A stretch of 64,000 nucleotides of DNA from contig JBMORG010000027.1 of the NCBI GenBank assembly GCA_049322355.1, positions 139,808 through 203,807 on the forward strand, read 5' to 3'. The position numbers and the translations under genes were made by a program. This DNA is from Thermodesulfobacteriota bacterium (GTDB lineage Bacteria; Desulfobacterota; Desulfobaccia; Desulfobaccales; 0-14-0-80-60-11). The notes beneath the pieces are model-generated. The model saw nothing but the letters and a program-made list of their open reading frames with translations. It was not told where the DNA came from and ran no database searches. Shown here in pieces: positions 5,509-50,214 of the stretch (its first letter is position 1; the number at the start of each line of letters is the position of its first letter).

Positions 5509-8031
5509 TCAAAGAATCGACAAACGCTCGTCGTAGATGTATTCCCGGGTATGCCTGGCCACCCGTTCCGGTTCCAGATGGATGCGGGCGGTTCCTGTGG
5601 CCATGGCGGCCCGGGCCACGGCCTCGGCCACCACCGGAGGCACCCGGAAGTCCATGGCCCCGGGCAGGATATATTCGGGATGCAATTTCTCCCCCACCAG
5701 TCCGGCAATGGCGTGGGCCGCAGCAATATTCATCTCATCATTGATGGCCCGGGCTCTGATGTCCAAGGCCCCCCGGAAGATGCCGGGAAAGGCCAGGCAG
5801 TTGTTCACCTGGTTGGCAAAATCGGAACGGCCCGTGGCCACCACCGCCGCGCCCGCCAGTTTGGCGGCTTCGGGGTGAATTTCCGGATCAGGATTGGCCA
5901 GGGCAAAGACCACCGGGTCCGGCGCCATGGACCGCACCATTTCCGGAGTGAGGACGTTGGGGCCGGACAGCCCGATAAAGATTTCCGCCCCTTTTATGGC
6001 GTCGGTTAAGGAACCTTGCAAACGGTCCGGGTTGGTAATTTCGGCCAATTCATTCTTGATAAAGTTCATGCCTTTATCCCGGCCTTTGTAAATGACCCCG
6101 GTAGTGTCGCAAACCACGATGTGGCGGGCCCCGGCCTGGATGAGAATCTTGGCCACCGCGATAGCCGAGGCTCCCGCCCCGTTGAAGACAATCTTAACCT
6201 CGGCCAATTTCCGGTCCACGATCTTCAAGGCGTTCATCAACCCCGCCAGGGCCACCACCGCGGTGCCGTGCTGGTCGTCGTGAAAGACCGGGATTTCCAG
6301 GCGCTCGCATAATCTCTGTTCGATGTCGAAGCACCTGGGGGAAGAGATGTCCTCCAGGTTTATCCCGGCAAACACCGGAGAAATATTCTCCACCACCTCC
6401 ACGATGCGGTCGGTTTCCTGGGTGCTGAGGCAGATGGGGAAGGCCTCCACGCCGCCGAAGGTTTTGAACAGGATGGCTTTGCCTTCCATCACCGGCAGGG
6501 CTGCCCTGGGGCCGATATTCCCCAACCCCAAGACCGCGCTGCCATCCGTCACGATGGCCACCAAGTTGTTTTTACAGGTATAGTCGTAGGCGCTCATGGG
6601 GTCCAGAATGATCTGGTTACAAACCTCGGCCACTGCCTGGGGGGCATAGAGCCGCCTGTAAATAACTTCATCTTTAATGGGAACCTTGGCGTTGACCTGG
6701 ATGCATCCCTGGTAACGGCGGTGAAGCTCCAACGCCTCCTCGTTGTGGCTGAGCTTGCCGTAATCCTGGCCTTCCGAGGGCAGCCAGGCCAGCTCCCCTT
6801 CATAGATATAGCTTTCGGTGCGCTCGTGAATCCGCTCCGGAGTGATGCTCTCCCGGGTAAGCTGGGCCGCCCCGGTTTCCTGGGCCGCCCTGGCCACCGC
6901 CTCGGCAATGACCGGGGAAATATGCCAGTCCATCTGCCGGGGGATAATATGGCTGGGGGATAATTTATTTTCCGGGATCATATCCGCCAGGGCCTTCGCC
7001 GCGGCCAGATACATTTCGATATTGACTTTGTGGGCCCCCACATCCAGACAGCCCCGGAAAAAGCCCGGAGTCACCAGCGAGGAACGGATTTGGTTTTCGC
7101 TGTCGGCCTGGCCGGTGGCCACCACCGCCCCGCCTCCGGCTTTGGCCTCGGCTTCGCTGATTTCCGGTATCGGCAGAGCCAGGGCAAAGACGATGGGGTC
7201 TTTGGCCATGGACGCGATCATTTCCCGGGTGACTAAGCCACCGGCGGAAAGTCCGATAAAGACATCCGCTCCCTTGATAACCTCTTCCAGGCTGCCTTTG
7301 ACATCCTGGGGACCTACCAGGCGGGCGATCTCGGATTTGGACCAATCCATGCCCACCGTGCGGTAAACGCGCAACGCGCCATGCCGGTCGCAAATCACAA
7401 TATTATTATTGCCGGCCACCAACAGCCCCTTGGCCACACCGATACCGGCGGCCCCGGCCCCGTTAATGACGATGCGCACTTCGCTCAAGGACTTGCCCAC
7501 TACTTTGAGGGCGTTATACAGGGCGGCCAGAACGATGATCCCGGACGCATGGTTTTCGTGGTGCAACACTGAAACCCGAACTGCATGCCGGATGCAATTT
7601 TCAATGGTGAAGCATTTGGGGGCGGCGATGGACTCCAGGCAAAAACCCCCGAAGGATGGAGCCAGAACCCGCACCGTTTCAATAATTTCGTAAGGATCTT
7701 GGGTCCTTAAGGCTATGGGGACGGCATCGACGTTGGCAAAGGTCTTATAGATTACCGATTTGGCTTCCAATTTAGGCAAAACCGCGGCGGCTCCGATGTT
7801 GCCGAACTCAAAGACCCGGCTGCCGTCGGAGATCAAGGCGATGGAGTTGCCCCGGCAGGTATACTGGTATGACGAGGCCGGGTTTTTTTCGATCTCTTTG
7901 CACACCGCGCCCACCCCCGGGGTGTAAACCCGGCTTAACACTGACACATCCCGGATGGGCATCTTGCTTTTGACGCCGATTAAACCCCGAAAGCGCCTAC
8001 GATAATCCAGAGCATCCGATTCTTTATCCAT
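5509..8031 (-). CDS. Tandem double malic-enzyme protein: two complete NAD(P)-malic enzyme modules in one 840-aa chain
   Basis: Module 1 (aa 7-412) and module 2 (aa 432-840) each run from ALxxxRRxxGxIxVxxKxPI to E(S/Y)IY(E/D). Module 2 carries VTDGSAVLGLGNIG, MEGKAILFK, INLEDI, FHDDQHGTA and NGAGASAIA. Confidence 0.85.
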   Translation of the reverse strand: MDKESDALDYRRRFRGLIGVKSKMPIRDVSVLSRVYTPGVGAVCKEIEKNPASSYQYTCRGNSIALISDGSRVFEFGNIGAAAVLPKLEAKSVIYKTFANVDAVPIALRTQDPYEIIETVRVLAPSFGGFCLESIAAPKCFTIENCIRHAVRVSVLHHENHASGIIVLAALYNALKVVGKSLSEVRIVINGAGAAGIGVAKGLLVAGNNNIVICDRHGALRVYRTVGMDWSKSEIARLVGPQDVKGSLEEVIKGADVFIGLSAGGLVTREMIASMAKDPIVFALALPIPEISEAEAKAGGGAVVATGQADSENQIRSSLVTPGFFRGCLDVGAHKVNIEMYLAAAKALADMIPENKLSPSHIIPRQMDWHISPVIAEAVARAAQETGAAQLTRESITPERIHERTESYIYEGELAWLPSEGQDYGKLSHNEEALELHRRYQGCIQVNAKVPIKDEVIYRRLYAPQAVAEVCNQIILDPMSAYDYTCKNNLVAIVTDGSAVLGLGNIGPRAALPVMEGKAILFKTFGGVEAFPICLSTQETDRIVEVVENISPVFAGINLEDISSPRCFDIEQRLCERLEIPVFHDDQHGTAVVALAGLMNALKIVDRKLAEVKIVFNGAGASAIAVAKILIQAGARHIVVCDTTGVIYKGRDKGMNFIKNELAEITNPDRLQGSLTDAIKGAEIFIGLSGPNVLTPEMVRSMAPDPVVFALANPDPEIHPEAAKLAGAAVVATGRSDFANQVNNCLAFPGIFRGALDIRARAINDEMNIAAAHAIAGLVGEKLHPEYILPGAMDFRVPPVVAEAVARAAMATGTARIHLEPERVARHTREYIYDERLSIL

Positions 8032-14878: not shown

Positions 14879-15013
14879 CGCGCAAGGTTACTATCCCAAA
14901 TTTCATAACTAATTCTGATAGATAATATAAATAATATTAATTTTACTTATATAAAATGGTGATTTAACATGAAGAAAAAGCTGGCATAGTGCTCTTGAGT
15001 AGGGGGTAATCCC

Positions 15014-15520
15014 ATGTTGATCAAGGGGTACACCAAATCTTTTGTCCGCCCGCCCAATCCCAGCGCCCAGCACCTTCGCTGTTTCGCCGCGCTGGACGCA
15101 GACGTCACCGAAGTGCTGCCTTATTTGAATACTATACTCAAGGGTTATGAATACCTGACCGACCCGCCCTCGCTGACACTGAAATTGCTGGGGAAACTCG
15201 TCACGATTCATCCCCGGAAGGTTGCCATTAATATTGTTAAAGATGAACAGGAAGCCGATGAGATTTTGGAGTGGCTGACTCGAAACATCAACGAAACCTG
15301 GGACCGGAAGAACCAAATCGCCCCAAGTTTTAAGGCCGCGCCTAAACCCCGGGTCCTGGATATTCTGAGACTTTTGCCCAAGACCAACTGCGGTAAATGC
15401 GGCGCCCCCACCTGCATGGTCTTTGCAGTGGGGCTGAGCACGGGAGAGAAGGTTCCGGAACTATGCCCGGCATTGGGCCAGGAGAACCGGGAAAGACTAG
15501 GGAATATCTTGGGTGTTTGA
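15014..15520 (+). CDS. Fe-S protein with C-terminal PF04060-type (RnfB/CFeSP-like) putative 4Fe-4S motif; N-terminal domain unknown
   Basis: LLPKTNCGKCGAPTCMVFAVGL matches the LPxTNCGxCGxPTCxAFA motif of RnfB N-termini and corrinoid Fe-S protein subunits. SD AGGGGG upstream. Confidence 0.6.
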   Translation: MLIKGYTKSFVRPPNPSAQHLRCFAALDADVTEVLPYLNTILKGYEYLTDPPSLTLKLLGKLVTIHPRKVAINIVKDEQEADEILEWLTRNINETWDRKNQIAPSFKAAPKPRVLDILRLLPKTNCGKCGAPTCMVFAVGLSTGEKVPELCPALGQENRERLGNILGV

Positions 15521-15665
15521 AGCAGGCGGTGGCGTAAAGGGAGTAATGATTTGGGTGGTGCCCAAGCAGAGCTTGGGCGATATGGGCTTTCCCAAGCTGT
15601 AAGCGACCCACCGGGCCGCCCGTACTTATGGGATGGGGGGGGCTTGGGGGAGGGGGTTAGAGGTT

Positions 15666-15688
15666 CACAGGCGAGACGCCTGTGCCAC
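15666..15688 (-). repeat. GTGGCACAGGC...GCCTGTG hairpin (family 3, reverse-oriented copy)
   Basis: cacaggcgagacgcctgtgccac lies in the convergent spacer between the Fe-S gene and mvhD. Confidence 0.7.
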
Positions 15689-15727
15689 TGCCCTTTGCCC
15701 CCTCCTCCAAAAACATCCCACCAGCTA

Positions 15728-16192
15728 TTAACCTGCCGCGGCTTTGGGCTGTTCGGCCAGCCAGGCCGCCCGGGCTTCCCGGTTCACCGGGCTGGGGCCC
15801 AGTTTCAAGGTCCGCTCCACCATTTCCTTGGCCAGGGCGGCGAATTTCGGCCCTTCCGAAGACGACAGGTTGAACATTTCCAACCGTTCCGGCTCGAACA
15901 CCCCCATCTGGGCGAAGTCCTTTTTTACCTTGTTGACCCGTTTTTTGGCCCGGATGTTGCCCATGAGATAATGGCACTCGCCCTCCAGGCACCCCGCCAC
16001 GAAGACTGAATCCGCCCCGGCTTCAAAGGCCTTGAGCAGGTGGATGATGTCCACCCGTCCGGTGCAGGGCATCATGATGACCTTGATATCCGGGGGGTAT
16101 TGCAGTCGCATCGAACCTGCCAGGTCCGCAGCGCTGTATGCTCAGTAACGGCAGCAAAAGCCGATGATTTTGGGAGACCACGCAGCAGTCAT
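15728..16192 (-). CDS. mvhD: MvhD-like (methyl-viologen-reducing hydrogenase delta subunit family) protein with in-frame UGA, predicted selenocysteine at codon 17
   Basis: The track ORF (15728..16111) starts at MRLQYPPDIKVIMMPCTGRVD. The same frame upstream reads ATG(16192) MTAAWSPKIIGFCCRY-TGA-AYSAADLAGS, with AGGAGG before the ATG. The TGA aligns with the second Cys of the MvhD FxCNWCSY motif. Confidence 0.75.
16108..16144 (-). promoter_or_regulatory. UGA (16144..16142) plus candidate bacterial SECIS hairpin
   Basis: The mRNA UGA-GCAUACAGCGCUGC-GGACCUG-GCAGGUUCGAUGC can form an imperfect stem of about 13 bp starting right after UGA. The G-rich apical loop lies 15-21 nt downstream. Confidence 0.5.
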
Positions 16193-16206
16193 AATTCCTC
16201 CTATTT

Positions 16207-19200
16207 TTATCCCGCAGCCAGAGCCGTTTCCTGGGCAATGATCTGGGCGTCGGTAAAGTTTTTCAGGGTGATGGCTTTGGCCGGGCACTCCGAGGGGCAT
16301 ACGCCGCAGCCCTGGCACTTGGCCGGGTCAATATAAGCCGCGTCCACGGTATAGTCGATGACCGGCACGTTGAAGGGGCAGGCCCGGACACAGGTGAGGC
16401 AGACGGCGCACTTGTCCTGATCCACCACCGCCACGATACCGCCCACCTCCACCATGGCTTTGCCCAGGAAGGTGGCAGCCCGGCCGGCCGCAGCTTTGGC
16501 CTGGGCGATGGACTCGTCGATGGGCTTGGGATAATGGACCAGCCCCGCCAGGAACATGCCGTCGGAGGGCAAATCCACCGGGCGCAGCTTGGCGTGGGCC
16601 TCATTGAGGAAGCCCTCGGCGTTCCGGGGCACCTTGAAGATTTCCCCGATGTCCTCCACCGGGTTGGGCAGTATTGCGGAAGCCAGGGTCAGAAGGTCGG
16701 GCTTCAGAACCACCGGGCGGTCCAGGATGGGATCAGTGATGGTCAATTGAAGCTTGCCCTCAGCCGATTGTTCCACTTTGGGTTTGCTGTCCAGATCGAA
16801 GCGGATAAAAATCACGCCCAGCTCCCGGGCCTCTTTGTAGAGCAGTTCCTTTTCGCCGTAGGTGCGCAGATCCCGGTAAAGGATGAAGACATCCATGTCG
16901 GGTTTGAGGCGTTTGAGTTCGATGGCGCCTTCCACCGAGTGGGTGCAGCACAGGCGGCTGCAATATGGCCGCTGGGGCTCCCGGGAGCCCACGCACTGGA
17001 TGAACACCGCCTGATTGGCCCCCATGATCTTGGGGTCTTTGGCGGCGACCAGTTTGTCGAACTCGAAGGCTGTCATGACATTGGGGTTTTGGCCGTACAG
17101 ATACTCTTCCGGCTGATAGGCTTGTCCGCCCGTGGCCATGATGGTGACGCCGTGATCCAACTGGCGCTCGCCCGCGGGCGTCTGAATCACCGTGGAGAAG
17201 TTGCCGATGAAGCCGCTGGTGTCCTTGACCGTGGAGTTGAAGATGATTTCGATATTGGGATGGGTCTCCACCTTCTTGATGAGGTCTTCCAGGTAGCCCC
17301 GGTAGTTGTAGCCCCGGGCGCTGGTCACCAGGTTCCAGGCCTGGCCGCCCAATTTATCGCCCTTTTCAACCAGATAGGCCTGGAAGCCCATATCGGCGAT
17401 GGAACGGGCCGACTCCATGCCCGCGACGCCGCCGCCGATGACCAGGCCGGCTTTCTGCACCGGGAAGGCCTGCTTGTGTAAGGGTTCCAGCTGCACCACC
17501 CGGGCCACCGCGCCCCGCACCAGGTCCTTGGCTTTTTCCAGGGCCTTTTCCGGTTCGTGCATGTGCACCCAGGAGTCCTGGTCCCGGATGTTGGCCATCT
17601 CAAAGAGGTAGGGGTTGAGACCCACCTGCTGAATGGTCTCCTGGAACATGGGCATGTGGGTCCGGGGGCTGCAAGATGCCACCACTACCCGGTTGAGTTT
17701 GTGTTCCTGAATGGCCGCCAGGATCTTGTCCTGGGTGTCGGCGGAACAGGTGAACAGGTTCTGGTCGGCCAGGACCACTCCCGGCAGGGAAGCGGTATAC
17801 TCCGTAAGGGCCGGGACGTTGATGACCCCGCCGATGTTGATGCCGCAGTTGCAGACAAAGACGCCCACCCGGGGCTCCTGGCCGGCCACATCGATCTCCG
17901 GCGGCAGTTCCCGCTTTTTGATGGCCGTGCCCCGGGCCGCGTGGAGAAGCTCACCCGCAGCCGCAGCCGCGGCGGAGGCCTCCATGACCGACTGGGGAAT
18001 GTCCTTGGGAGCCTGGAAGACGCCGCAGACATAAACGCCTTCCTTGTTGGTGCTCACCGGGGTAAAGGGAGAGGTGTCGGCAAACCTGGTTTCGGTCTTG
18101 ATCTCAATGCCCATGGTTTTGGCCAGGTTCAAGGCATCCCGGGAGGATTCCAGGCCCACGGAGAGGACCACCATATCGAAGGTTTCCGTTTTCAGCTCGC
18201 CCTTCTCCGAGAGGTAGCGGATGGCCACATCATCGGTGCCCGGCACCTGGTCAATGGTGTGGACCCGGGAGCGCAGGAAGCGGACGCCGTGTTCCTGTTC
18301 GGCCCGCCAGTAATACTTCTCGAAGTCCTTGCCGTGGGTCCGCATGTCCATGAAGAAAATGGACGTATCCAGCGTATAGTCTTTGCAATGCTCTTTGGCG
18401 ATGACCGCCTGCTTGATGGCATACATGCAGCACACCGCCGAGCAGTAGCTGTTGTCGCAGTGGTTCAGGTCCCGGGAGCCCACGCACTGGAGCCAGGCGA
18501 TCTTCAGGGGCTCCTTGTGGTCCGAAGGCCGGACCAGGTGGCCGGCAAAAGGCCCGGAGGCGCTCAAGATGCGCTCGAATTCCAGGCTGGTGACCACGTT
18601 GGGGAAATTGGCATAGTGATAGGCTTCGTATTTCTTAGGGTCATAGACCTGGAAGCCCGGAGCCAGGATGACTGCGCCCACGTCCAACTCCACCTTCTCC
18701 GGTCCCAGTTCATGGGCTACCGCTTTCGCCTGGCAGGCCTGGGCGCACTGCATGCACTCGGAGCAAATGCCGCAGTTGATGCAGCGGGCCGCTTCCTCCA
18801 CAGCCTGCTCTTCGCTGTAGCCCAGGTTGATTTCCTTGAAGCCCTTGATCCATTCCTCCACCGGCAGGGTCTCCATGAGGGCCCGTTGTTTCTTCTGGAT
18901 ATCTTCCGGAATCCGGTTCCACTGGCCTTCTTCCTTGGGAATGGGCCGCACCGGCAATTCCCGGTCGGCTTTCAGGTCTTTGCCCTCAAGGTAGCGCTCA
19001 ATGGAAGTTGCGGCTTCCCGGCCTGCCGCCACTGCGGCGATGGCGATCCAGGGGCCGGTTTCCACGTCGCCGCCGGCAAAGACACCTTCGCGAGAGGTGG
19101 CCTTGGTGACCGGGTCGGTTTCGATGAGTCCCCGGGGGGTCAGCTTGAGGCCGTCGGCTTCGGTGATGAACTTCAGGTCGGTCTTCTGGCCGATGGCCAT

Positions 19201-20679
19201 GATGACTATGTCGGCATCCTGGGTGGTGGTTTTATCTTCAAAGTAGGTGGGGGAGAACCGTCCCTGCTCGTCGAAGACCCGCTCCACCGCCTTGAGGGTG
19301 AGCCCGGTTACCTTGCCGCCCGCGGCGTTGATTTCTTTGACGCCCCAGCGGTTAATGACCGTGACACCCTCGTGCTCGGCCTCTTCCACTTCCCACGAGG
19401 AGGCAGGCATCTCTTCCCGGGTCTCCAGGCAGATGAGGGTGATGTTCCCTCCCTGGCGCCGGGCGGTGCGGGCCACGTCCATGGCCACGTTGCCGCCGCC
19501 GATGACCACCACTTTTTTGCCGCTGAAATCGAACTTCTTGCCTGAGGTGGAATCCTTCAAGTATTCCACGCCCCAGAGCACGCCCTGGGCGTCAGACCCT
19601 GGCACCGGCAGGCGGATGGAGTCCTGAGCCCCCACACCCACAAACACGGCGCTGAAGCCGTCCCGGGTGAGGAGATCGTTGATGGTGCGGTCGCCGCCGA
19701 TGGGGGAGTTGTAGTGGATTTCCACGCCGCAGCGCTTGATGTAGTCCACTTCCCGGTCCAGGACTTCCCGGGGCAGCCGATATTCCGGGATGCCGTAGCG
19801 CAGCCAGCCGCCCGCAGCGGGCGCGGCCTCAAAGATCACCGGTTTAAAGCCTTTCAGGGCCAGGTGGTAGGCGCAGCTTAACCCGGAAGGGCCGGCGCCG
19901 ATGATGGCCACCGACTGGCTCTTTTTGGGCGCCTCCGGCACCGGCAGGGCGCTCCAGTCCACCGCGTCCGCCACAAAGCGCTTCAGGTTGCAGATGGCAA
20001 TGGGCTCATCCACGTCCTGGCGGCGGCAGTCGGTCTCGCAGGGGTGGGGGCAGATGCGGCCGATGGTCCCCGGCAGGGGCAGCCGGTCCATGATCAGGGC
20101 CAGGGCCTCAGGGTACTTGTGTTCCTTGATGAGCTGCACATAGCCCTGGGCGCTCAAGTTGGCAGGACAGGCCCTTACGCAGGGGGCCCGGTCCGCCTTC
20201 TTGATGGCGAAGGTGGCGGGAATGGCCTGGGGATAGAGGCGGTAAACGGCCTTGCCTTCGGCCAGCCCCAGGTTGAACTCGTCGGGCACCCGCACCGGGC
20301 AGACCTCAGCACAGGTCCCGCAGCCGGTGCACTTGGCAGGGTCAATGTAGCGGGGTTCTTTTTCCACGCTGACCTTGAAATTCCCCGGCGTGCCGGCGAT
20401 GGCCTTCACTTCCGACAGGGTGTGGATTTGAATGTTCAGGTGCCGGCCGCATTCCACCAACTTGGGGGAAATGATGCACATGGAGCAGTCATTGGTGGGG
20501 AAGGTCTTGTCCAACTGGGCCATAACCCCGCCGATGGCCGACTTGTTTTCCACCAAATGGACATAAAAGCCAGAATTAGCCAGGTCCAGGGCTGCCTGCA
20601 CCCCGGCGATCCCGGCGCCGATCACCATAACTTGACCTACTGGACCTTGTGTTTCGGCTGCCATAAATATACCTTCCAT
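16207..20679 (-). CDS. hdrL: Giant HdrA-type fusion (HdrL-like): HdrA module interrupted by a GltD/NfnB-like NAD(P)H oxidoreductase module, followed by a second HdrA module
   Basis: 1490 aa. Motifs: VIGAGIAGVQAALDLA, FPTNDCSMC and CTGCGTCAEVCP (HdrA); CPHPCETDCRR, IIGAGPSGL, VVVIGGGNVAMD and FAGGD (GltD/NfnB-like, aa about 165-565); WLQCVGSRD...CSAVCC; second FAD module VIGGGVAGM...FIQCVGSRE...CSRLCC; C-terminal 2x[4Fe-4S]. The start could instead be ATG 20664. Confidence 0.9.
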   Translation of the reverse strand: MEGIFMAAETQGPVGQVMVIGAGIAGVQAALDLANSGFYVHLVENKSAIGGVMAQLDKTFPTNDCSMCIISPKLVECGRHLNIQIHTLSEVKAIAGTPGNFKVSVEKEPRYIDPAKCTGCGTCAEVCPVRVPDEFNLGLAEGKAVYRLYPQAIPATFAIKKADRAPCVRACPANLSAQGYVQLIKEHKYPEALALIMDRLPLPGTIGRICPHPCETDCRRQDVDEPIAICNLKRFVADAVDWSALPVPEAPKKSQSVAIIGAGPSGLSCAYHLALKGFKPVIFEAAPAAGGWLRYGIPEYRLPREVLDREVDYIKRCGVEIHYNSPIGGDRTINDLLTRDGFSAVFVGVGAQDSIRLPVPGSDAQGVLWGVEYLKDSTSGKKFDFSGKKVVVIGGGNVAMDVARTARRQGGNITLICLETREEMPASSWEVEEAEHEGVTVINRWGVKEINAAGGKVTGLTLKAVERVFDEQGRFSPTYFEDKTTTQDADIVIMAIGQKTDLKFITEADGLKLTPRGLIETDPVTKATSREGVFAGGDVETGPWIAIAAVAAGREAATSIERYLEGKDLKADRELPVRPIPKEEGQWNRIPEDIQKKQRALMETLPVEEWIKGFKEINLGYSEEQAVEEAARCINCGICSECMQCAQACQAKAVAHELGPEKVELDVGAVILAPGFQVYDPKKYEAYHYANFPNVVTSLEFERILSASGPFAGHLVRPSDHKEPLKIAWLQCVGSRDLNHCDNSYCSAVCCMYAIKQAVIAKEHCKDYTLDTSIFFMDMRTHGKDFEKYYWRAEQEHGVRFLRSRVHTIDQVPGTDDVAIRYLSEKGELKTETFDMVVLSVGLESSRDALNLAKTMGIEIKTETRFADTSPFTPVSTNKEGVYVCGVFQAPKDIPQSVMEASAAAAAAGELLHAARGTAIKKRELPPEIDVAGQEPRVGVFVCNCGINIGGVINVPALTEYTASLPGVVLADQNLFTCSADTQDKILAAIQEHKLNRVVVASCSPRTHMPMFQETIQQVGLNPYLFEMANIRDQDSWVHMHEPEKALEKAKDLVRGAVARVVQLEPLHKQAFPVQKAGLVIGGGVAGMESARSIADMGFQAYLVEKGDKLGGQAWNLVTSARGYNYRGYLEDLIKKVETHPNIEIIFNSTVKDTSGFIGNFSTVIQTPAGERQLDHGVTIMATGGQAYQPEEYLYGQNPNVMTAFEFDKLVAAKDPKIMGANQAVFIQCVGSREPQRPYCSRLCCTHSVEGAIELKRLKPDMDVFILYRDLRTYGEKELLYKEARELGVIFIRFDLDSKPKVEQSAEGKLQLTITDPILDRPVVLKPDLLTLASAILPNPVEDIGEIFKVPRNAEGFLNEAHAKLRPVDLPSDGMFLAGLVHYPKPIDESIAQAKAAAGRAATFLGKAMVEVGGIVAVVDQDKCAVCLTCVRACPFNVPVIDYTVDAAYIDPAKCQGCGVCPSECPAKAITLKNFTDAQIIAQETALAAG

Positions 20680-20923
20680 TTACTCAGGATATTTATATTT
20701 TATAACAAATTTTGTGCAGATATTGTGAAATTACCCACTAGTCCATCCTAAAAGATAATGTTCAATATGTCAAGAGAGAATGAAAACTCTTGCTGCCAGG
20801 CAAACTGTTGTCCCCTATCTTGATTAGGGCCGGAAAATGCTTAAGATTATGACAACTGCATCTTCCGGCCCGAGGAAAAAAAGTAGCAAGGCTATACTTC
20901 TAATACCATTTTGCAGTCGAATG

Positions 20924-20972
20924 GTGGCACAGGCGTCTAGCCTGTGCAGCGCAGGCTAAAGCCTGCGGCTAC
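20924..20972 (+). repeat. Double-hairpin element GTGGCACAGGCGTCTAGCCTGTGCAGCGCAGGCTAAAGCCTGCGGCTACC (family 3, copy 1)
   Basis: Two adjacent hairpins (CACAGGC/GCCTGTG and GCAGGC/GCCTGC). Flanked by outer inverted arms TTGCAGTCGA (20911) and TTGACTGCAA (20986). Confidence 0.8.
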
Positions 20973-21051
20973 CAAAAATAGCCCTTTGACTGCAACTCGG
21001 TATGATGGGGCAAAAAGGGACAGGACATGGCTGCCATATCTGTTAGTGCAA

Positions 21052-21113
21052 GTGGCACAGGCCTCTGGCCTGTGAAAGGCAGGATATGACCGCACATCAG
21101 AGGCCTGTGCCAC
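21052..21113 (+). repeat. Family 3 copy 2: GTGGCACAGGCC...GGCCTGTGCCAC long palindrome
   Basis: gtggcacaggcctctggcctgtgaaaggcagg...cagaggcctgtgccac; the terminal 12-nt arms are perfect inverted repeats. Confidence 0.8.
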
Positions 21114-21140
21114 TTAGATATTTGTGATTAAGAAAGTATA

Positions 21141-21162
21141 GGACAGCCGCCCTCGGCTGTCC
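21141..21162. repeat. GC hairpin GGACAGCCGCCCTCGGCTGTCC
   Basis: Inverted arms GGACAGCCG/CGGCTGTCC in the hdrL/DUF169 divergent spacer. Confidence 0.7.
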
Positions 21163-21220
21163 GGAGGTGTAGGGGAGGCACTGCCCGCCGGCTTCTTTTT
21201 GCGAAAGTTGTTGAGGTTTT

Positions 21221-21279
21221 GTGGCACAGGGTTGTAACCTGTGCAGCACAGGCCGAAGGCGGGCACGGAGGCCCGCCCC
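21221..21279 (+). repeat. Family 3 copy 3 fused to a GGCGGGCACGGAGGCCCGCC hairpin
   Basis: gtggcacagggttgtaacctgtgcagcacaggccgaaggcgggcacggaggcccgcccc. The 3' hairpin is the reverse complement of the one at 29786-29806. Confidence 0.8.
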
Positions 21280-21364
21280 ACCGGATTCTTCATTGTTTTG
21301 AGAGAGTCGCGGGCTCGTGAGCGACTATTCCAATTGATATAGGCGATATGAGGAGATAAAATTA

Positions 21365-24717: not shown

Positions 24718-25761
24718 ATGGCCGAATTCAGCACCTATAAAGATGCCGGGGTCGATATCGAGAAGGCAGACGCCTTCATTAAAAATATCCGGCCTTTGGT
24801 TAAAGCCACTTACCGTACCGGGGTCCTGGGGGAGATCGGGTCCTTCGGCGGCATGTTTCATCTGGGGGTGGACCGCTATCGCGACCCCGTATTGGTATCC
24901 GCCACCGACGGGGTGGGGACCAAGCTGAAAATCGCTATCCTCATGAACCGCCACGACACAATCGGCATCGACCTGGTGGCCATGTGCGCCAACGACATTG
25001 TGGTCCATGGCGCCACCCCGTTGTTTTTTCTGGATTACCTGGCCATGGGGAAGCTGTCCACTGAAACCGCCACGCTCCTCATTGAAGGCATCGCTCACGG
25101 CTGCCGGTTGGCCCGCTGCTCCCTGATCGGCGGAGAAACCGCGGAGATGCCCGGCATCTATCAGCCCGGCGACTACGATTTGGCCGGCTTTGTGGTGGGG
25201 GTAGTGGAACGGGACGCCATCATCGACGGCTCGGATATTGCCGTAGGACACCGGATCATCGGCATCGCCTCCAGTGGCCTCCATGCCAACGGCTACTCCC
25301 TGGTGCGCCAGGTGCTGTTTGAGCGGCACCATTTGCAGGTGGACGACGAGATTCCGGAATTGGGCGGGCCCCTGGGAGAAGAACTCTTGAAACCCACCCG
25401 CATCTATGTAGAGACGGTGCTCAATCTGCTCCGGGACTTCCCGTTGAGCGGCATCTGCCATGTCACCGGCGGCGGCTTGACCGACAACCTGCCCCGTATT
25501 TTGCCCAAATCGTGCCAAGCCATCATCAAAAAGCACTCCTGGCCGGTGCCTCCTATATTCCATCTGCTTCGGGACCGGGGCAACATCCCGGAAGCTGAAA
25601 TGCTCAGGACCTTCAATAACGGCATCGGCCTGGTGCTCGTGGTCAGGGAAGAACACGAAGCCGATGTCCTTCTGCGTCTCCAAGGCCTGCACGAGGCAGG
25701 CTACGTCATCGGGGAAATCGTGGAACGCAAAAATGACGACCCGGCGCTGGTGTATATGTGA
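24718..25761 (+). CDS. purM: Phosphoribosylformylglycinamidine cyclo-ligase (AIR synthetase)
   Basis: 347 aa. YKDAGVDI, DGVGTK and GGETAEMPG motifs. Confidence 0.97.
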   Translation: MAEFSTYKDAGVDIEKADAFIKNIRPLVKATYRTGVLGEIGSFGGMFHLGVDRYRDPVLVSATDGVGTKLKIAILMNRHDTIGIDLVAMCANDIVVHGATPLFFLDYLAMGKLSTETATLLIEGIAHGCRLARCSLIGGETAEMPGIYQPGDYDLAGFVVGVVERDAIIDGSDIAVGHRIIGIASSGLHANGYSLVRQVLFERHHLQVDDEIPELGGPLGEELLKPTRIYVETVLNLLRDFPLSGICHVTGGGLTDNLPRILPKSCQAIIKKHSWPVPPIFHLLRDRGNIPEAEMLRTFNNGIGLVLVVREEHEADVLLRLQGLHEAGYVIGEIVERKNDDPALVYM

Positions 25762-41412: not shown

Positions 41413-41994
41413 TTATTTTCGGATAAATATAATCAAATAGTTGTAAGGCCCTAATTTTGCCGCCTTTTGCCGCTTAAAGCCATAGGGGGAAACCAGATTT
41501 TCCACTTCCTCCGGGTCCAGCCGGATATGCCGGGGAGGGCCCGGGGGGCCGTCGATCTTGTCGAATTCCACAATGGCAAGACAACCGCCGGGCTTGAGCA
41601 CCCGGGCCAATTCATTCAGGGCGACGGCGTCCGTCCCGGCTTCCACCAGGTCATGGAGCACGGTGGCCATAAAGGCCACATCCACGCTGTGGTCTGTCAA
41701 AGGGACCTTTCCCGCCGAAGATACCATGGCCTTGATGTTGGTTCGTCCTGCTTTGGCAGCCCTTTCTTTTAGGGCGGCAATCCCTTCTTCCCATAAATCC
41801 ACGGCGTAAATTACACCGGTAGGTCCGATAATTTCTGCCGCGGCCAGGGCGTAATTGCCAGCCCCGCAGCCCAAATCGAGGAAAGTCGTTTCCGAAGGTA
41901 GATTTAGTTCGCTCCAGAGGGCTTCAGGATTAATCAGGTCAAAGCTGCTTTTTCCCGCGCCCGGGGGTTTGTGGGGGTCACTATGATTTGCCAT
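41413..41994 (-). CDS. Class I SAM-dependent methyltransferase embedded between nuoH and nuoI
   Basis: Start is MANHSDPHKPP (ATG 41994). Motif I FLDLGCGAGNYA and LKPGGCLAIVEF. The track extension to 42240 runs through the family 1 repeat. Confidence 0.75.
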   Translation of the reverse strand: MANHSDPHKPPGAGKSSFDLINPEALWSELNLPSETTFLDLGCGAGNYALAAAEIIGPTGVIYAVDLWEEGIAALKERAAKAGRTNIKAMVSSAGKVPLTDHSVDVAFMATVLHDLVEAGTDAVALNELARVLKPGGCLAIVEFDKIDGPPGPPRHIRLDPEEVENLVSPYGFKRQKAAKLGPYNYLIIFIRK

Positions 41995-42068
41995 TTTGCC
42001 TCTATCTTTTCTGTAAGGAGGTCCTGGTGTAGCATCCCGGGTAAAAATTGCACAAACCACCTGTTTTT

Positions 42069-42168
42069 TCCCTTCCCCTTGATGGGGGAGGGTCAGGGTG
42101 GAGGTGAACCTGACTGATTTCGTTGCCTTTCCCCCTCCCCCCAACCCCCTCCCACCAGGCGAGGGGGA
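42069..42168 (+). repeat. Family 1 bipartite element, copy 4
   Basis: TCCCTTCCCCTTGATGGGGGAGGGTCAGGGTGGAGGTGA ... CCCCCTCCCCCCAACCCCCTCCCACCAGGCGAGGGGGAG, in the nuoH-methyltransferase spacer. Confidence 0.85.
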
Positions 42169-42258
42169 GTTTAAAGGCCTGGCTTTTCGAAATGTCTTTG
42201 CGGAACACAATACCAGGTGTCCTTTATCCGGGGAGGGCAAATAGGTGCGCCTTCCGGA

Positions 42259-47817: not shown

Positions 47818-50214
47818 TTACCGGTCAATGTCCGGCATGACGTAATCGATGGAACCGATAATGACGACCAAATCCGACAAGAGGTGGCCCACGGCCATGA
47901 GGGGCAGGGCCTGGACGTTGGCGAATCCCGGGGACCGGATACGCAGACGGTAGGCCATGCTGAGGCCGTCGCTCACCACGTAGAAACCCTGCTCCCCCCG
48001 GGGATGCTCCGTGGCGGCATAGGCTTCGCCCCGGGGAATCTTGGGTCCCCGGGTAACATTGATGAAATGGTGGATCAGGCTTTCAATGTCCTTTAAGGTG
48101 TCTTCTTTCCGGGGGACCGCGTAGCGATAGTCGTCGGTGATGTAGCGCCCCGGAGGCATCCGGTCAGCCGCCTGCCGGATTATCCTGAGACTCTGGCGCA
48201 TCTCCGCCACCCGCACCTGGTAACGGGCATAGGTGTCGCCCTCGCTGGCCGTGGGGATGTCAAACTCAAAGGCTTCATAGGCCGAATAGGGGAACTTTTT
48301 TCGCAAGTCCCATTCCAGGCCGCAGGCCCGGAGGTTAACCCCCGTCACTCCCCAATCCATGGCGTCATCCAGGGAAAGATAACCAACACCCCGGGTCCGG
48401 GCCTCCCAAATGGGGTTGCGGGTGATGGCCTTTTCGAGCTCGTTAAGCTGCCGGGAGAAGCCTTTGATGAAGGCGTCCACCGGCTCTTTCCAGCCCTCCG
48501 GCAAATCCATGGCCACGCCCCCCAACCGGAACCAGGAGGGATGGAGCCGCCCCCCGGTGATCAACTCGACGATGTCCATGATTTTTTCCCGTTCCGCAAA
48601 GGCGTAGAAAGTGGGGGAGATGGCGCCCGTATCCACGGTGTGGGTGGAGAACCACACCAGGTGGTTCGCCAGGCGGAAAAACTCGGTGAGCATCACCCGG
48701 ATGAACTGGGCCCGGTCCGGGACCTTGATGCCCGCCAGGGTTTCCACGGCGTGGAGGTAGCTCAGGTTGTTGGCCACACCGGTCAGATAATCGGCCCGGT
48801 CGGTATAGGGGATGAACTGGTGCCAGGACTGGCGCTCGCCGATTTTTTCCACGGCCCGGTGGTGGTAGCCGATATCGGTGTCCATGGCGGTGATTTCCTC
48901 GCCGTGGAGGGCCAGGATAAACCGGATGAGCCCGTGGGTGCTGGTGTGATGGGGACCGACGTTGAGAATCAGCTCTTTTTCCCCTACCCGCCCCGCCATA
49001 TATTTGCCGGCGTCCAGGGGCTGGTATTTCCGGGCCTCCGCCTGGGTATAAGGGGGCATCCGGGTGGCCCGGTCCGGGTAGCTCTTCCGCAGGGGGTGGC
49101 CCTCCCAGTCGTGGGGCATGAGGAGCCGCCAGAGCCGGGGGTGGCCATCGAAGCGGATGCCGAACATATCAAAGCATTCCCGTTCGTACCAGTTGGCCGA
49201 GGGCCAGATATCGGTAATGCTGCCGGTGACGGGACTTTCTCCGTGCAGGGGCACCTTCAACCGCAGCCGGGAGGGGGGGGCGAAGGAGAGAAGCTGGTAG
49301 ACCAGGGTATAATCCGGGTAAGCCTGCCGCTCCTGCCGAGCGGATTCATCCACCGCGGTGAGGTCATCCAGGCGGCGGAACCGGGGAGACGCCTCGGTCT
49401 TGAGAAACCGCAGCACCTCTTTGACCCGGTCCGGGGCCACCTGGAAGGTGGGCATGTCCGAGGTTTCGGCTGCAGGGGTAACCGCATCACCGAATCTCTC
49501 CTGGAGCGTCTGGGCGAGAGATTTGTCTGTCTCAGTCAGTTCCATGCGGGCCGGGGGCGGGGTCCACATGAGTTCGGAGCGGCTCTCCCAAAACCACGGC
49601 GGGCTCACCGCAGTGCCCCGGGGGGGCGTGCCGTAATAGCCGGGTCCCCGGGGGTCCCGGGATTTGTTGACGCCGTCCACTGCCAGCGGTCTCTGGGTGC
49701 CCTGGGTGCCGCCGGCCAGGTGGAGAATCTTCCGGGTTGGCCGTTCGGATTTAACCTTTTCCTGGAGGAGCACCAGGCCCTGGAGCACCGCTTCGGGCCG
49801 GGGCGGACAGCCGGGAATGTAGATATCCACCGGCAATATCTGGTCCACACCCTGCACCACGCTGTAGCAGTCGTACATCCCACCGCAGTTGGCGCAGGAC
49901 CCCATGGAGATCACCCACTTGGGTTCGGCCATCTGTTCGTAGAGCCGGAGCACCACCGGGGCGATTTTTTTAAAGACCGTGCCGGAGATGATCAGGAGGT
50001 CGGCCTGCCGGGGCGAGCCTCGCAGGACTTCCGCGCCGAACCGGGCCATATCATAGCGGGAGGTCAGCGCGGTGGATTCTTCGATAAAACAGCAGGAGAG
50101 CCCGAAAAACATGGGCCAGAAGCTGTAGGACCGAAACCAGTTGATCAGCCCGTCGATGCGGCCAAGGATCAGGTTTTCGGGCTTATCCGGCGGGGCGGGG
50201 CAGCGGCCCTCCAA
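47818..50214 (-). CDS. nuoBCD: Fused NADH-quinone oxidoreductase subunits B, C and D in one 798-aa polypeptide
   Basis: NuoB: FGLSCCFIE...[13 protein letters not shown]...IPGCPPRPE. NuoC: a central region of about 160 aa. NuoD: [16 protein letters not shown]...to the C-terminus. TTG start 6 nt after GGAGG. Confidence 0.9.

Follow-up and report, generated by a model that had tools for sequence, protein, structure and literature searches.

An in-frame UGA in an mvhD-like gene beside hdrL of a Desulfobaccales bacterium is very probably decoded as selenocysteine

The gene at 15728..16192 on the minus strand of the 64-kb stretch of DNA analysed here (hereafter the window) is, with high confidence on comparative grounds, a selenoprotein gene in which the UGA at codon 17 is decoded as selenocysteine (Sec). 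The first-pass annotation had taken this in-frame UGA for a Sec codon and not for a truncation, and the alternation of TGA with Cys codons at related loci, the translation start signal and a conserved hairpin all support that interpretation. The evidence consists of an intact reading frame with its own 5' start signal, membership of the product in a known family, conservation of the TGA and its exchange with Cys codons, and constraint at the RNA level on the downstream hairpin.

Reading frame and protein family

The minus-strand frame runs from an ATG at 16192..16190 to a TAA at 15730..15728, a length of 154 codons plus the stop, and its sole interruption is the TGA at 16144..16142. The strand reads AGGAGGAATT-ATG at this start and continues as MTAAWSPKIIGFCCRY-TGA-AYSAADLAGSMRLQYPP. 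The list of open reading frames (ORFs) contains only 15728..16111 for this gene, a product of 127 aa with the first residues MRLQYPP. The features of the gene are as follows.

15728..16192, minus strand: full mvhD-like gene, M1..U17..G154, with Sec predicted at codon 17 (from the translation, the PF02662 match and a frame kept in 76 TGA loci)
16142..16144, minus strand: UGA codon 17, read as Sec, in C14-R-Y-U17, a CxxU motif (from alignment with Cys homologues)
16197..16202, minus strand: Shine-Dalgarno (SD) sequence AGGAGG, 4 nt before the ATG at 16192
16109..16111, minus strand: internal ATG (Met28), the gene caller's start of the shortened 127-aa product (from the ORF list and database relatives)

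The frame, coordinates, sequence and AGGAGG given in the first-pass annotation, including the ATG at 16192, the TGA at 16144..16142 and the listed start at MRLQYPP, were all found to be correct. The G+C content at third codon positions (GC3) was 0.75 and was high across all 154 codons. No in-frame ATG, GTG or TTG lies between the TGA and Met28. Two plus-strand ORFs that overlap mvhD (15551..16009 and 16040..16336) had a flat GC content by codon position.

With Cys put at the TGA, the read-through product matched the Pfam FlpD/MvhD profile (PF02662, methyl-viologen-reducing hydrogenase, delta subunit) from end to end (profile positions 1-123 of 123, residues 9-132; E 2.9e-45, 153.7 bits, cut-off 22.3). 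The match was full-length only when the TGA was read through; thus the 27 N-terminal residues belong to the domain. Six MvhD/VhuD chains in the PDB matched the product with E values of 4e-37 to 2e-34, and in the MvhD chains 5odc_D (Cys16) and 7bkb_F the second Cys of C-N-W-C stands opposite residue 17, in agreement with the earlier placement of the TGA at the second Cys of an FxCNWCSY motif. In the VhuD chain 9sfi_K (F420-non-reducing hydrogenase subunit delta), an X (..FVCYQXGYG..) is aligned to U17 and a second X occupies the C68 position; X in this chain presumably denotes Sec. Residues C14, U17, C43, C68 and C73 align with Cys residues of 5odc_D, 7bkb_F and 8rvu_F that make up the Cys set of a predicted [2Fe-2S] adaptor, and the Cys set of the family (CxxC/U at the N-terminus, PC(T/S)G, GC and C-H-Y) is present in the product. 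By its sequence, the protein belongs to the MvhD/FlpD family and is an MvhD-like adaptor of HdrL. Identification as VhuD, or as the delta subunit of Mvh hydrogenase proper, was rejected because the product scored 148.7 bits against the NCBIfam VhuD model NF045873, below the cut-off of 215, and because the 64-kb window contains no hydrogenase subunit genes, mvhA and mvhG included; the sole Complex1_49kDa match in the window is NuoD in the nuo cluster.

Conservation of the UGA codon, the start signal and the downstream hairpin

A scan of one genome per species yielded 80 related loci, mostly from metagenome-assembled genomes (MAGs) of Desulfobaccales, Syntrophobacterales and Desulfobacterales, with protein identities to the window mvhD of 58-92%. 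The homologous codon was TGA in 76 of these loci, TGC in three and TGT in one, and in none was it TAA or TAG. The scan was not biased toward TGA, since the only search pattern covering this codon (FCCRYCAY) matches Cys codons only. The window and the 76 loci together form a set of 77 TGA sequences with nucleotide identities of 54-98%. Throughout this set, codons -10 to -1 and +1 to +4 relative to the TGA are conserved in amino acid while using two to five synonymous codons each, with Ala at +1 encoded about equally by all four of its codons, and residues conserved with synonymous variation extend from codon -10 to codon +100. Protein-level conservation combined with variable synonymous sites was likewise seen over the 16 codons ahead of the TGA and the 10 that follow. 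Selection on the protein at codons +1 to +10, together with the lack of a start codon between the TGA and Met28, means that read-through is required.

Start signals were compared at both candidate initiation codons, an SD-like motif being defined as GGAG, GAGG or AGGA located 4-16 nt before the start. All 77 TGA sequences possess a 5' ATG with such a motif, 15-17 codons before the TGA, and none has one ahead of the internal ATG, which argues strongly against independent initiation at MRLQYPP. Relatives with a stop or frameshift at this point and a start of their own at MRLQYPP were looked for, and the codon proved to be TGA or Cys in every case, with no SD at the internal ATG. The closest relatives in the protein database (81-97% identity) are for the most part products of 122-129 aa whose first residue is the internal Met or one close to it (e.g., P0009), as had been anticipated from the behaviour of standard gene callers. 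In the full-length relatives (153-158 aa, 79-84% identity) the motif is CRYC or CHYC, with Cys at this site, and close Cys orthologues include P0001-P0007.

The minimum-free-energy (MFE) fold, taken on 66 nt around the TGA, placed a hairpin directly downstream of it, with these components.

16103..16136, minus strand: whole imperfect hairpin of 34 nt and 13 bp, made up of a lower stem and the apical hairpin
16112..16128, minus strand: apical hairpin CGGACCU-GGC-AGGUUCG, 17 nt, a candidate Sec insertion element (SECIS) starting 13 nt after the UGA (from the MFE fold and the frozen codons)
16113..16127, minus strand: hairpin core GGACCUGGCAGGUUC, nearly invariant, coinciding with the frozen codon stretch

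The lower stem pairs CAGCGC with GCG-CUG and the upper stem pairs CGGACCU with AGGUUCG, leaving an apical loop GGC, which widens to UGGCA when the closing U-A pair does not form. An imperfect hairpin of 34 nt and 13 bp had been proposed from the outset and was recovered here, although its loop had been given as GGACCUG; in the MFE fold GGACCU is a stem arm and GGC is the loop. The fold with the GGACCUG loop (stem CUGC/GCAG) was rejected, as 42 of 61 distinct sequences cannot form its pair 15-27 and 15 of 61 cannot form its pair 17-25, and covariation is absent. The energy of the fold was ordinary in comparison with shuffled sequence (z = 0.13), so stability alone proves nothing and the evidence was drawn from comparative data.

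Among the 77 TGA sequences, 54 degenerate codons encode an amino acid that is at least 95% conserved. The 49 of these that lie outside the hairpin core all vary, with a median share of the major codon of 0.61 and a maximum of 0.935, whereas codons +6 to +9 (GAC CTG GCA GGT) are represented by a single codon in 77, 77, 77 and 76 of the 77 sequences, respectively. The core GGACCUGGCAGGUUC occurs once in the window, and in 75 loci it follows the TGA at a fixed spacing of 14 nt; in most sequences the frozen stretch corresponds to the apical hairpin of the MFE fold. Its closing pair is C-G in 39 of the 61 distinct sequences, G-C in 15 and unpaired in seven, and the switch from C-G to G-C was probably a single clade-level evolutionary event. 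Because the apical stem never varies, there is no covariation beyond this switch. Pairing of the lower stem (columns 9-14 with 36-42) persists mostly in Desulfobaccales and Syntrophobacterales and is often absent in Desulfobacterales. Thus, the hairpin, which the first-pass annotation had described as placed for a bacterial SECIS, is kept in orthologues with its synonymous sites frozen. A predicted SECIS core that is nearly invariant across three orders is a mildly new point. An Rfam scan of 15000..17000 at E values up to 10 returned nothing at this hairpin, the only matches being weak, chance-level, miRNA-like ones on a separate hairpin after the mvhD stop.

One to three mismatches to the core are present in seven of eight Cys-type genes, and the eighth, at locus L081, keeps it. 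This orthologue (L081:5001-5462; CHYC, with TGC) retains the core as GGACCTGGCAGGTTC with zero mismatches, in what resembles a fossil SECIS that has outlasted a recent change from Sec to Cys; SECIS remnants in Cys genes have been described earlier (PMC1794560).

Other accounts of the TGA have to be weighed against its decoding as Sec. If it were a true stop, the 16-residue upstream peptide would be either made or meaningless, and the functional protein would start independently at Met28. This account can draw on the ORF list entry and dozens of database entries that start at or next to Met28, on the invariance of Met28 itself, and on the position of the frozen stretch just upstream of Met28, where it could in principle be a translation-initiation signal. 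Met28 is just as conserved in the full-length Cys forms, however, and a product beginning there would be without the first 19 Pfam positions, including C14 and Cys/Sec17, which are kept in all solved homologues. The distribution of SD-like motifs favours the 5' ATG throughout, the stretch from the TGA to Met28 evolves in the manner of coding sequence and offers no in-frame start, and the stop is always TGA and is swapped only with Cys codons. On this evidence a true stop is very improbable.

We attach the same very small likelihood to read-through with an amino acid other than Sec, in which, for example, Cys or Trp would be inserted through near-cognate suppression or a mis-charged tRNA, either always or under selenium starvation. 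In some systems Cys can be inserted at Sec UGA codons when selenium is limiting, and the Sec machinery was not seen in the 64-kb window, both of which fit this possibility. Against it stands the hairpin at SECIS distance, which is constrained in the 77 TGA sequences and lost in seven of the eight Cys genes, since the SelB pathway needs a hairpin and plain suppression does not. The family is, moreover, already established as a selenoprotein family, and TGA terminates at least 15 other genes in the window and is therefore not reassigned. Still less probable, to the point of being negligible, is a pseudogene or a sequencing or assembly error: although TGA is a single base change from TGC or TGT, the same TGA recurs in 76 genomes from different species that were assembled independently, with the frame intact on both sides, and GC3 is high throughout the 154-codon frame. 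Decoding of the UGA as Sec is accordingly the reading that we adopt below.

The hdrL-mvhD module and the rest of the window

The gene immediately upstream of mvhD encodes an HdrL-type protein.

16207..20679, minus strand: hdrL-type gene, 1490 aa, with its stop at 16209..16207, 14 nt before the mvhD start (from Pfam and NCBIfam matches)

The predicted HdrL has two HdrA-like modules separated by a GltD/NfnB-like NAD(P)H module and carries a ferredoxin domain at its C-terminus, the architecture described under the name HdrL in Desulfobacterium autotrophicum (PMC2702500). Homologues of HdrL occur at 74 of the 80 loci, their genes ending just short of mvhD where the contig is long enough. The CxxC motif of HdrL (NDCSMC) is encoded by Cys codons in the window, and it is CSMC or CAMC, again with Cys codons, in 64 of the 64 loci in which the motif was found. 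Sec in HdrL was accordingly rejected; its ORF is uninterrupted, and many stop codons fill the frame ahead of its start. The confinement of predicted Sec to the adaptor subunit of the hdrL-mvhD module is a second mildly new point.

A DUF169 gene lies upstream of hdrL and is divergent from it, across a non-coding gap of 685 nt (20680-21364), and downstream of mvhD is a convergent gene for a small Fe-S protein. Directly after the mvhD stop, between the convergent genes, is an imperfect long hairpin (15628-15725; -53.3 kcal/mol, z = -1.9) with a G-rich arm GGAGGAGGGGG and a C-rich arm CCCCCUCCCCC, to which the chance-level miRNA-like Rfam matches refer. It has no T run and may be a transcript-end structure of a kind that lacks one.

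No selA, selB, selD or tRNA-Sec gene was found in the 64-kb window, all of whose approximately 52 likely genes were scanned against Pfam or NCBIfam. Because 64 kb is a small part of a genome, the absence of Sec genes from it is uninformative. The window contains no tRNA genes of any kind, and the absence of tRNA-Sec from 60 related loci likewise says little. When the window was extended by way of its end genes, short contigs (4.9 and 1.6 kb) of a single sequencing run were all that was reached. A protein with AIRS and AIRS_C domains (24718..25761) was considered as SelD and rejected, as it is PurM (TIGR00878, 433.8 bits). No in-frame TGA selenoprotein candidate other than mvhD was found in the window; a TGA shared in frame by nuoJ and nuoK was rejected as simple gene adjacency. 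That the source organism is a Sec user is nevertheless probable, given an intact TGA, start signal and predicted SECIS held in common with 76 other species.

The rest of the window carries housekeeping genes, the nuo cluster and pentose-phosphate genes. Within the nuo cluster, a single 798-aa ORF (47818-50214, minus strand) has NuoB, NuoC and NuoD domains and is thus a BCD fusion, and a SAM-methyltransferase gene (41413-42240, minus strand) is situated between the NADHdh (nuoH-type) and 4Fe-4S (nuoI-type) genes. A malic-enzyme homologue of 840 aa (5509-8031, minus strand) has its malic domains at residues 460-809, and its first ~450 residues are without a Pfam match at E 1e-8.

Relation to known selenoproteins, proposed mechanism and implications

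The FrhD/MvhD/VhuD family (PF02662) is a listed prokaryotic selenoprotein family with the motif CxxU, and proteins of the VhuD type have up to two Sec residues (PMC13188914); the first-pass annotation had likewise named VhuD/MvhD as a recurrent selenoprotein family. In 2006 it was the third most numerous family among bacterial selenoproteins, with 19 genes, eight of them in Syntrophobacter fumaroxidans (PMC1794560), and a 2016 count gave 131 bacterial FrhD/MvhD/VhuD selenoproteins in 53 organisms (PMC5029168). An MvhD gene with Sec is thus an already known kind of gene, and because MvhD/FrhD is a long-known bacterial selenoprotein family, the case in the window amounts to a valid correction of the annotation rather than to a discovery, and it leaves knowledge of selenoproteins as it was.

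The nearest parallel is Desulfobacterium autotrophicum HRM2, in which Sec-containing mvhD genes (mvhD1, 2, 3 and 5) lie next to hdrA/hdrL (PMC2702500). As in the window, a small PF02662 gene with an in-frame UGA directly follows an HdrL-type HdrA/glutamate-synthase fusion in a deltaproteobacterium of the sulfate-reducer type, and two Desulfobacterium MAG loci (L063 and L069) have the same TGA and the same SECIS core as the window mvhD. HRM2, compared here by its published description, differs in that its HdrL1 and HdrL3 are reported as selenoproteins (PMC2702500), whereas HdrL in the window has Cys. The solved VhuD/MvhD chains belong to the same fold family and length class and are likewise [2Fe-2S] adaptors bound to HdrA. 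VhuD 9sfi_K differs from the window protein in its second X, read as Sec, at the position where the latter has C68; archaeal SECIS elements lie in untranslated regions and not, like the window hairpin, right after the UGA; and the window mvhD has no MvhA/MvhG hydrogenase genes near it.

A further MvhD homologue, BamF of the class II benzoyl-CoA reductase of Geobacter metallireducens, has a Sec19 seen by cryo-EM, for which a selenenylsulfide intermediate was suggested in a step that the authors call unresolved (bioRxiv 10.64898/2026.04.10.717634). It too is a bacterial adaptor homologous to MvhD, with an N-terminal Sec near its [2Fe-2S] cluster, and it connects a module for electron input with a bifurcating subunit of the HdrA type; judged by position, Sec19 would be the equivalent of U17. 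BamF differs in its length, which is greater by over 100 residues and includes extra domains, and in being part of the BamB-I complex, and no Bam genes were found in the 64-kb window.

A second MvhD-like gene, at L081:5592-6053, was called as fragments of 65 and 63 aa. Its frame reads ...ADAIFVGG*EAGSCHFLEGN..., with the TGA at the second conserved Cys, which is the C68 position and that of the second X in 9sfi_K, and its N-terminal motif has Cys (CTYC). This gene probably encodes a Sec-containing MvhD of a MetFV-Hdr module, an assignment made because MTHFR and DUF5981 genes adjoin it.

The minimal SECIS of Escherichia coli fdhF is a 17-nt upper stem-loop located 11 nt after the UGA, with a GGUC loop and essential G23 and U24 residues ~20 nt downstream. 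The candidate hairpin in the window resembles it in being an in-coding hairpin right after the UGA, with loop residues G24 and G25 (counted from the U of UGA) at a matching distance. Its sequence differs, it has no evident bulged U, its loop is GGC (or UGGCA) in place of GGUC, and its spacer is 2 nt longer.

Translation would start at the ATG at 16192 behind AGGAGG and would reach the UGA at 16144..16142, where the 17-nt hairpin, 13 nt downstream, would act as a bacterial SECIS and recruit SelB with Sec-tRNA(Sec). Sec would then be inserted at codon 17 and translation would go on to the TAA at 15730..15728; we infer this insertion of selenium for the source organism from the comparative evidence. 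The expected product is a 154-residue adaptor that would bind a [2Fe-2S] cluster, dock on the HdrL encoded immediately upstream and pass electrons between the cluster and the HdrA-type flavin, as MvhD and VhuD do in the Hdr complexes of methanogens. Beside the cluster, Sec17 (in C14-x-x-U17) would replace a Cys for which a redox-active disulfide has been proposed.

We put forward, as a speculation that is rather unlikely to hold in full, that the Cys/Sec17 site beside the MvhD [2Fe-2S] cluster is a rate-limiting switch between one- and two-electron transfer, operating by way of a selenenylsulfide, in a bifurcating HdrL enzyme of Desulfobaccales that stands alone and is linked to NAD(P)H. The idea is prompted by the finding that the HdrL CxxC is Cys in every locus examined, while MvhD has a Sec codon in 76 of 80. 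The occurrence of an identical SECIS core in three orders (Desulfobaccales, Syntrophobacterales and Desulfobacterales) might also be due to lateral spread of the module.

In annotation, the entry ought to be a selenoprotein of 154 residues, in place of a 127-residue fragment or a pseudogene, and the miscall is widespread. The corrected gene marks the HdrL-MvhD module as selenium-dependent, which matters when the energy metabolism of uncultured Desulfobaccales is reconstructed.
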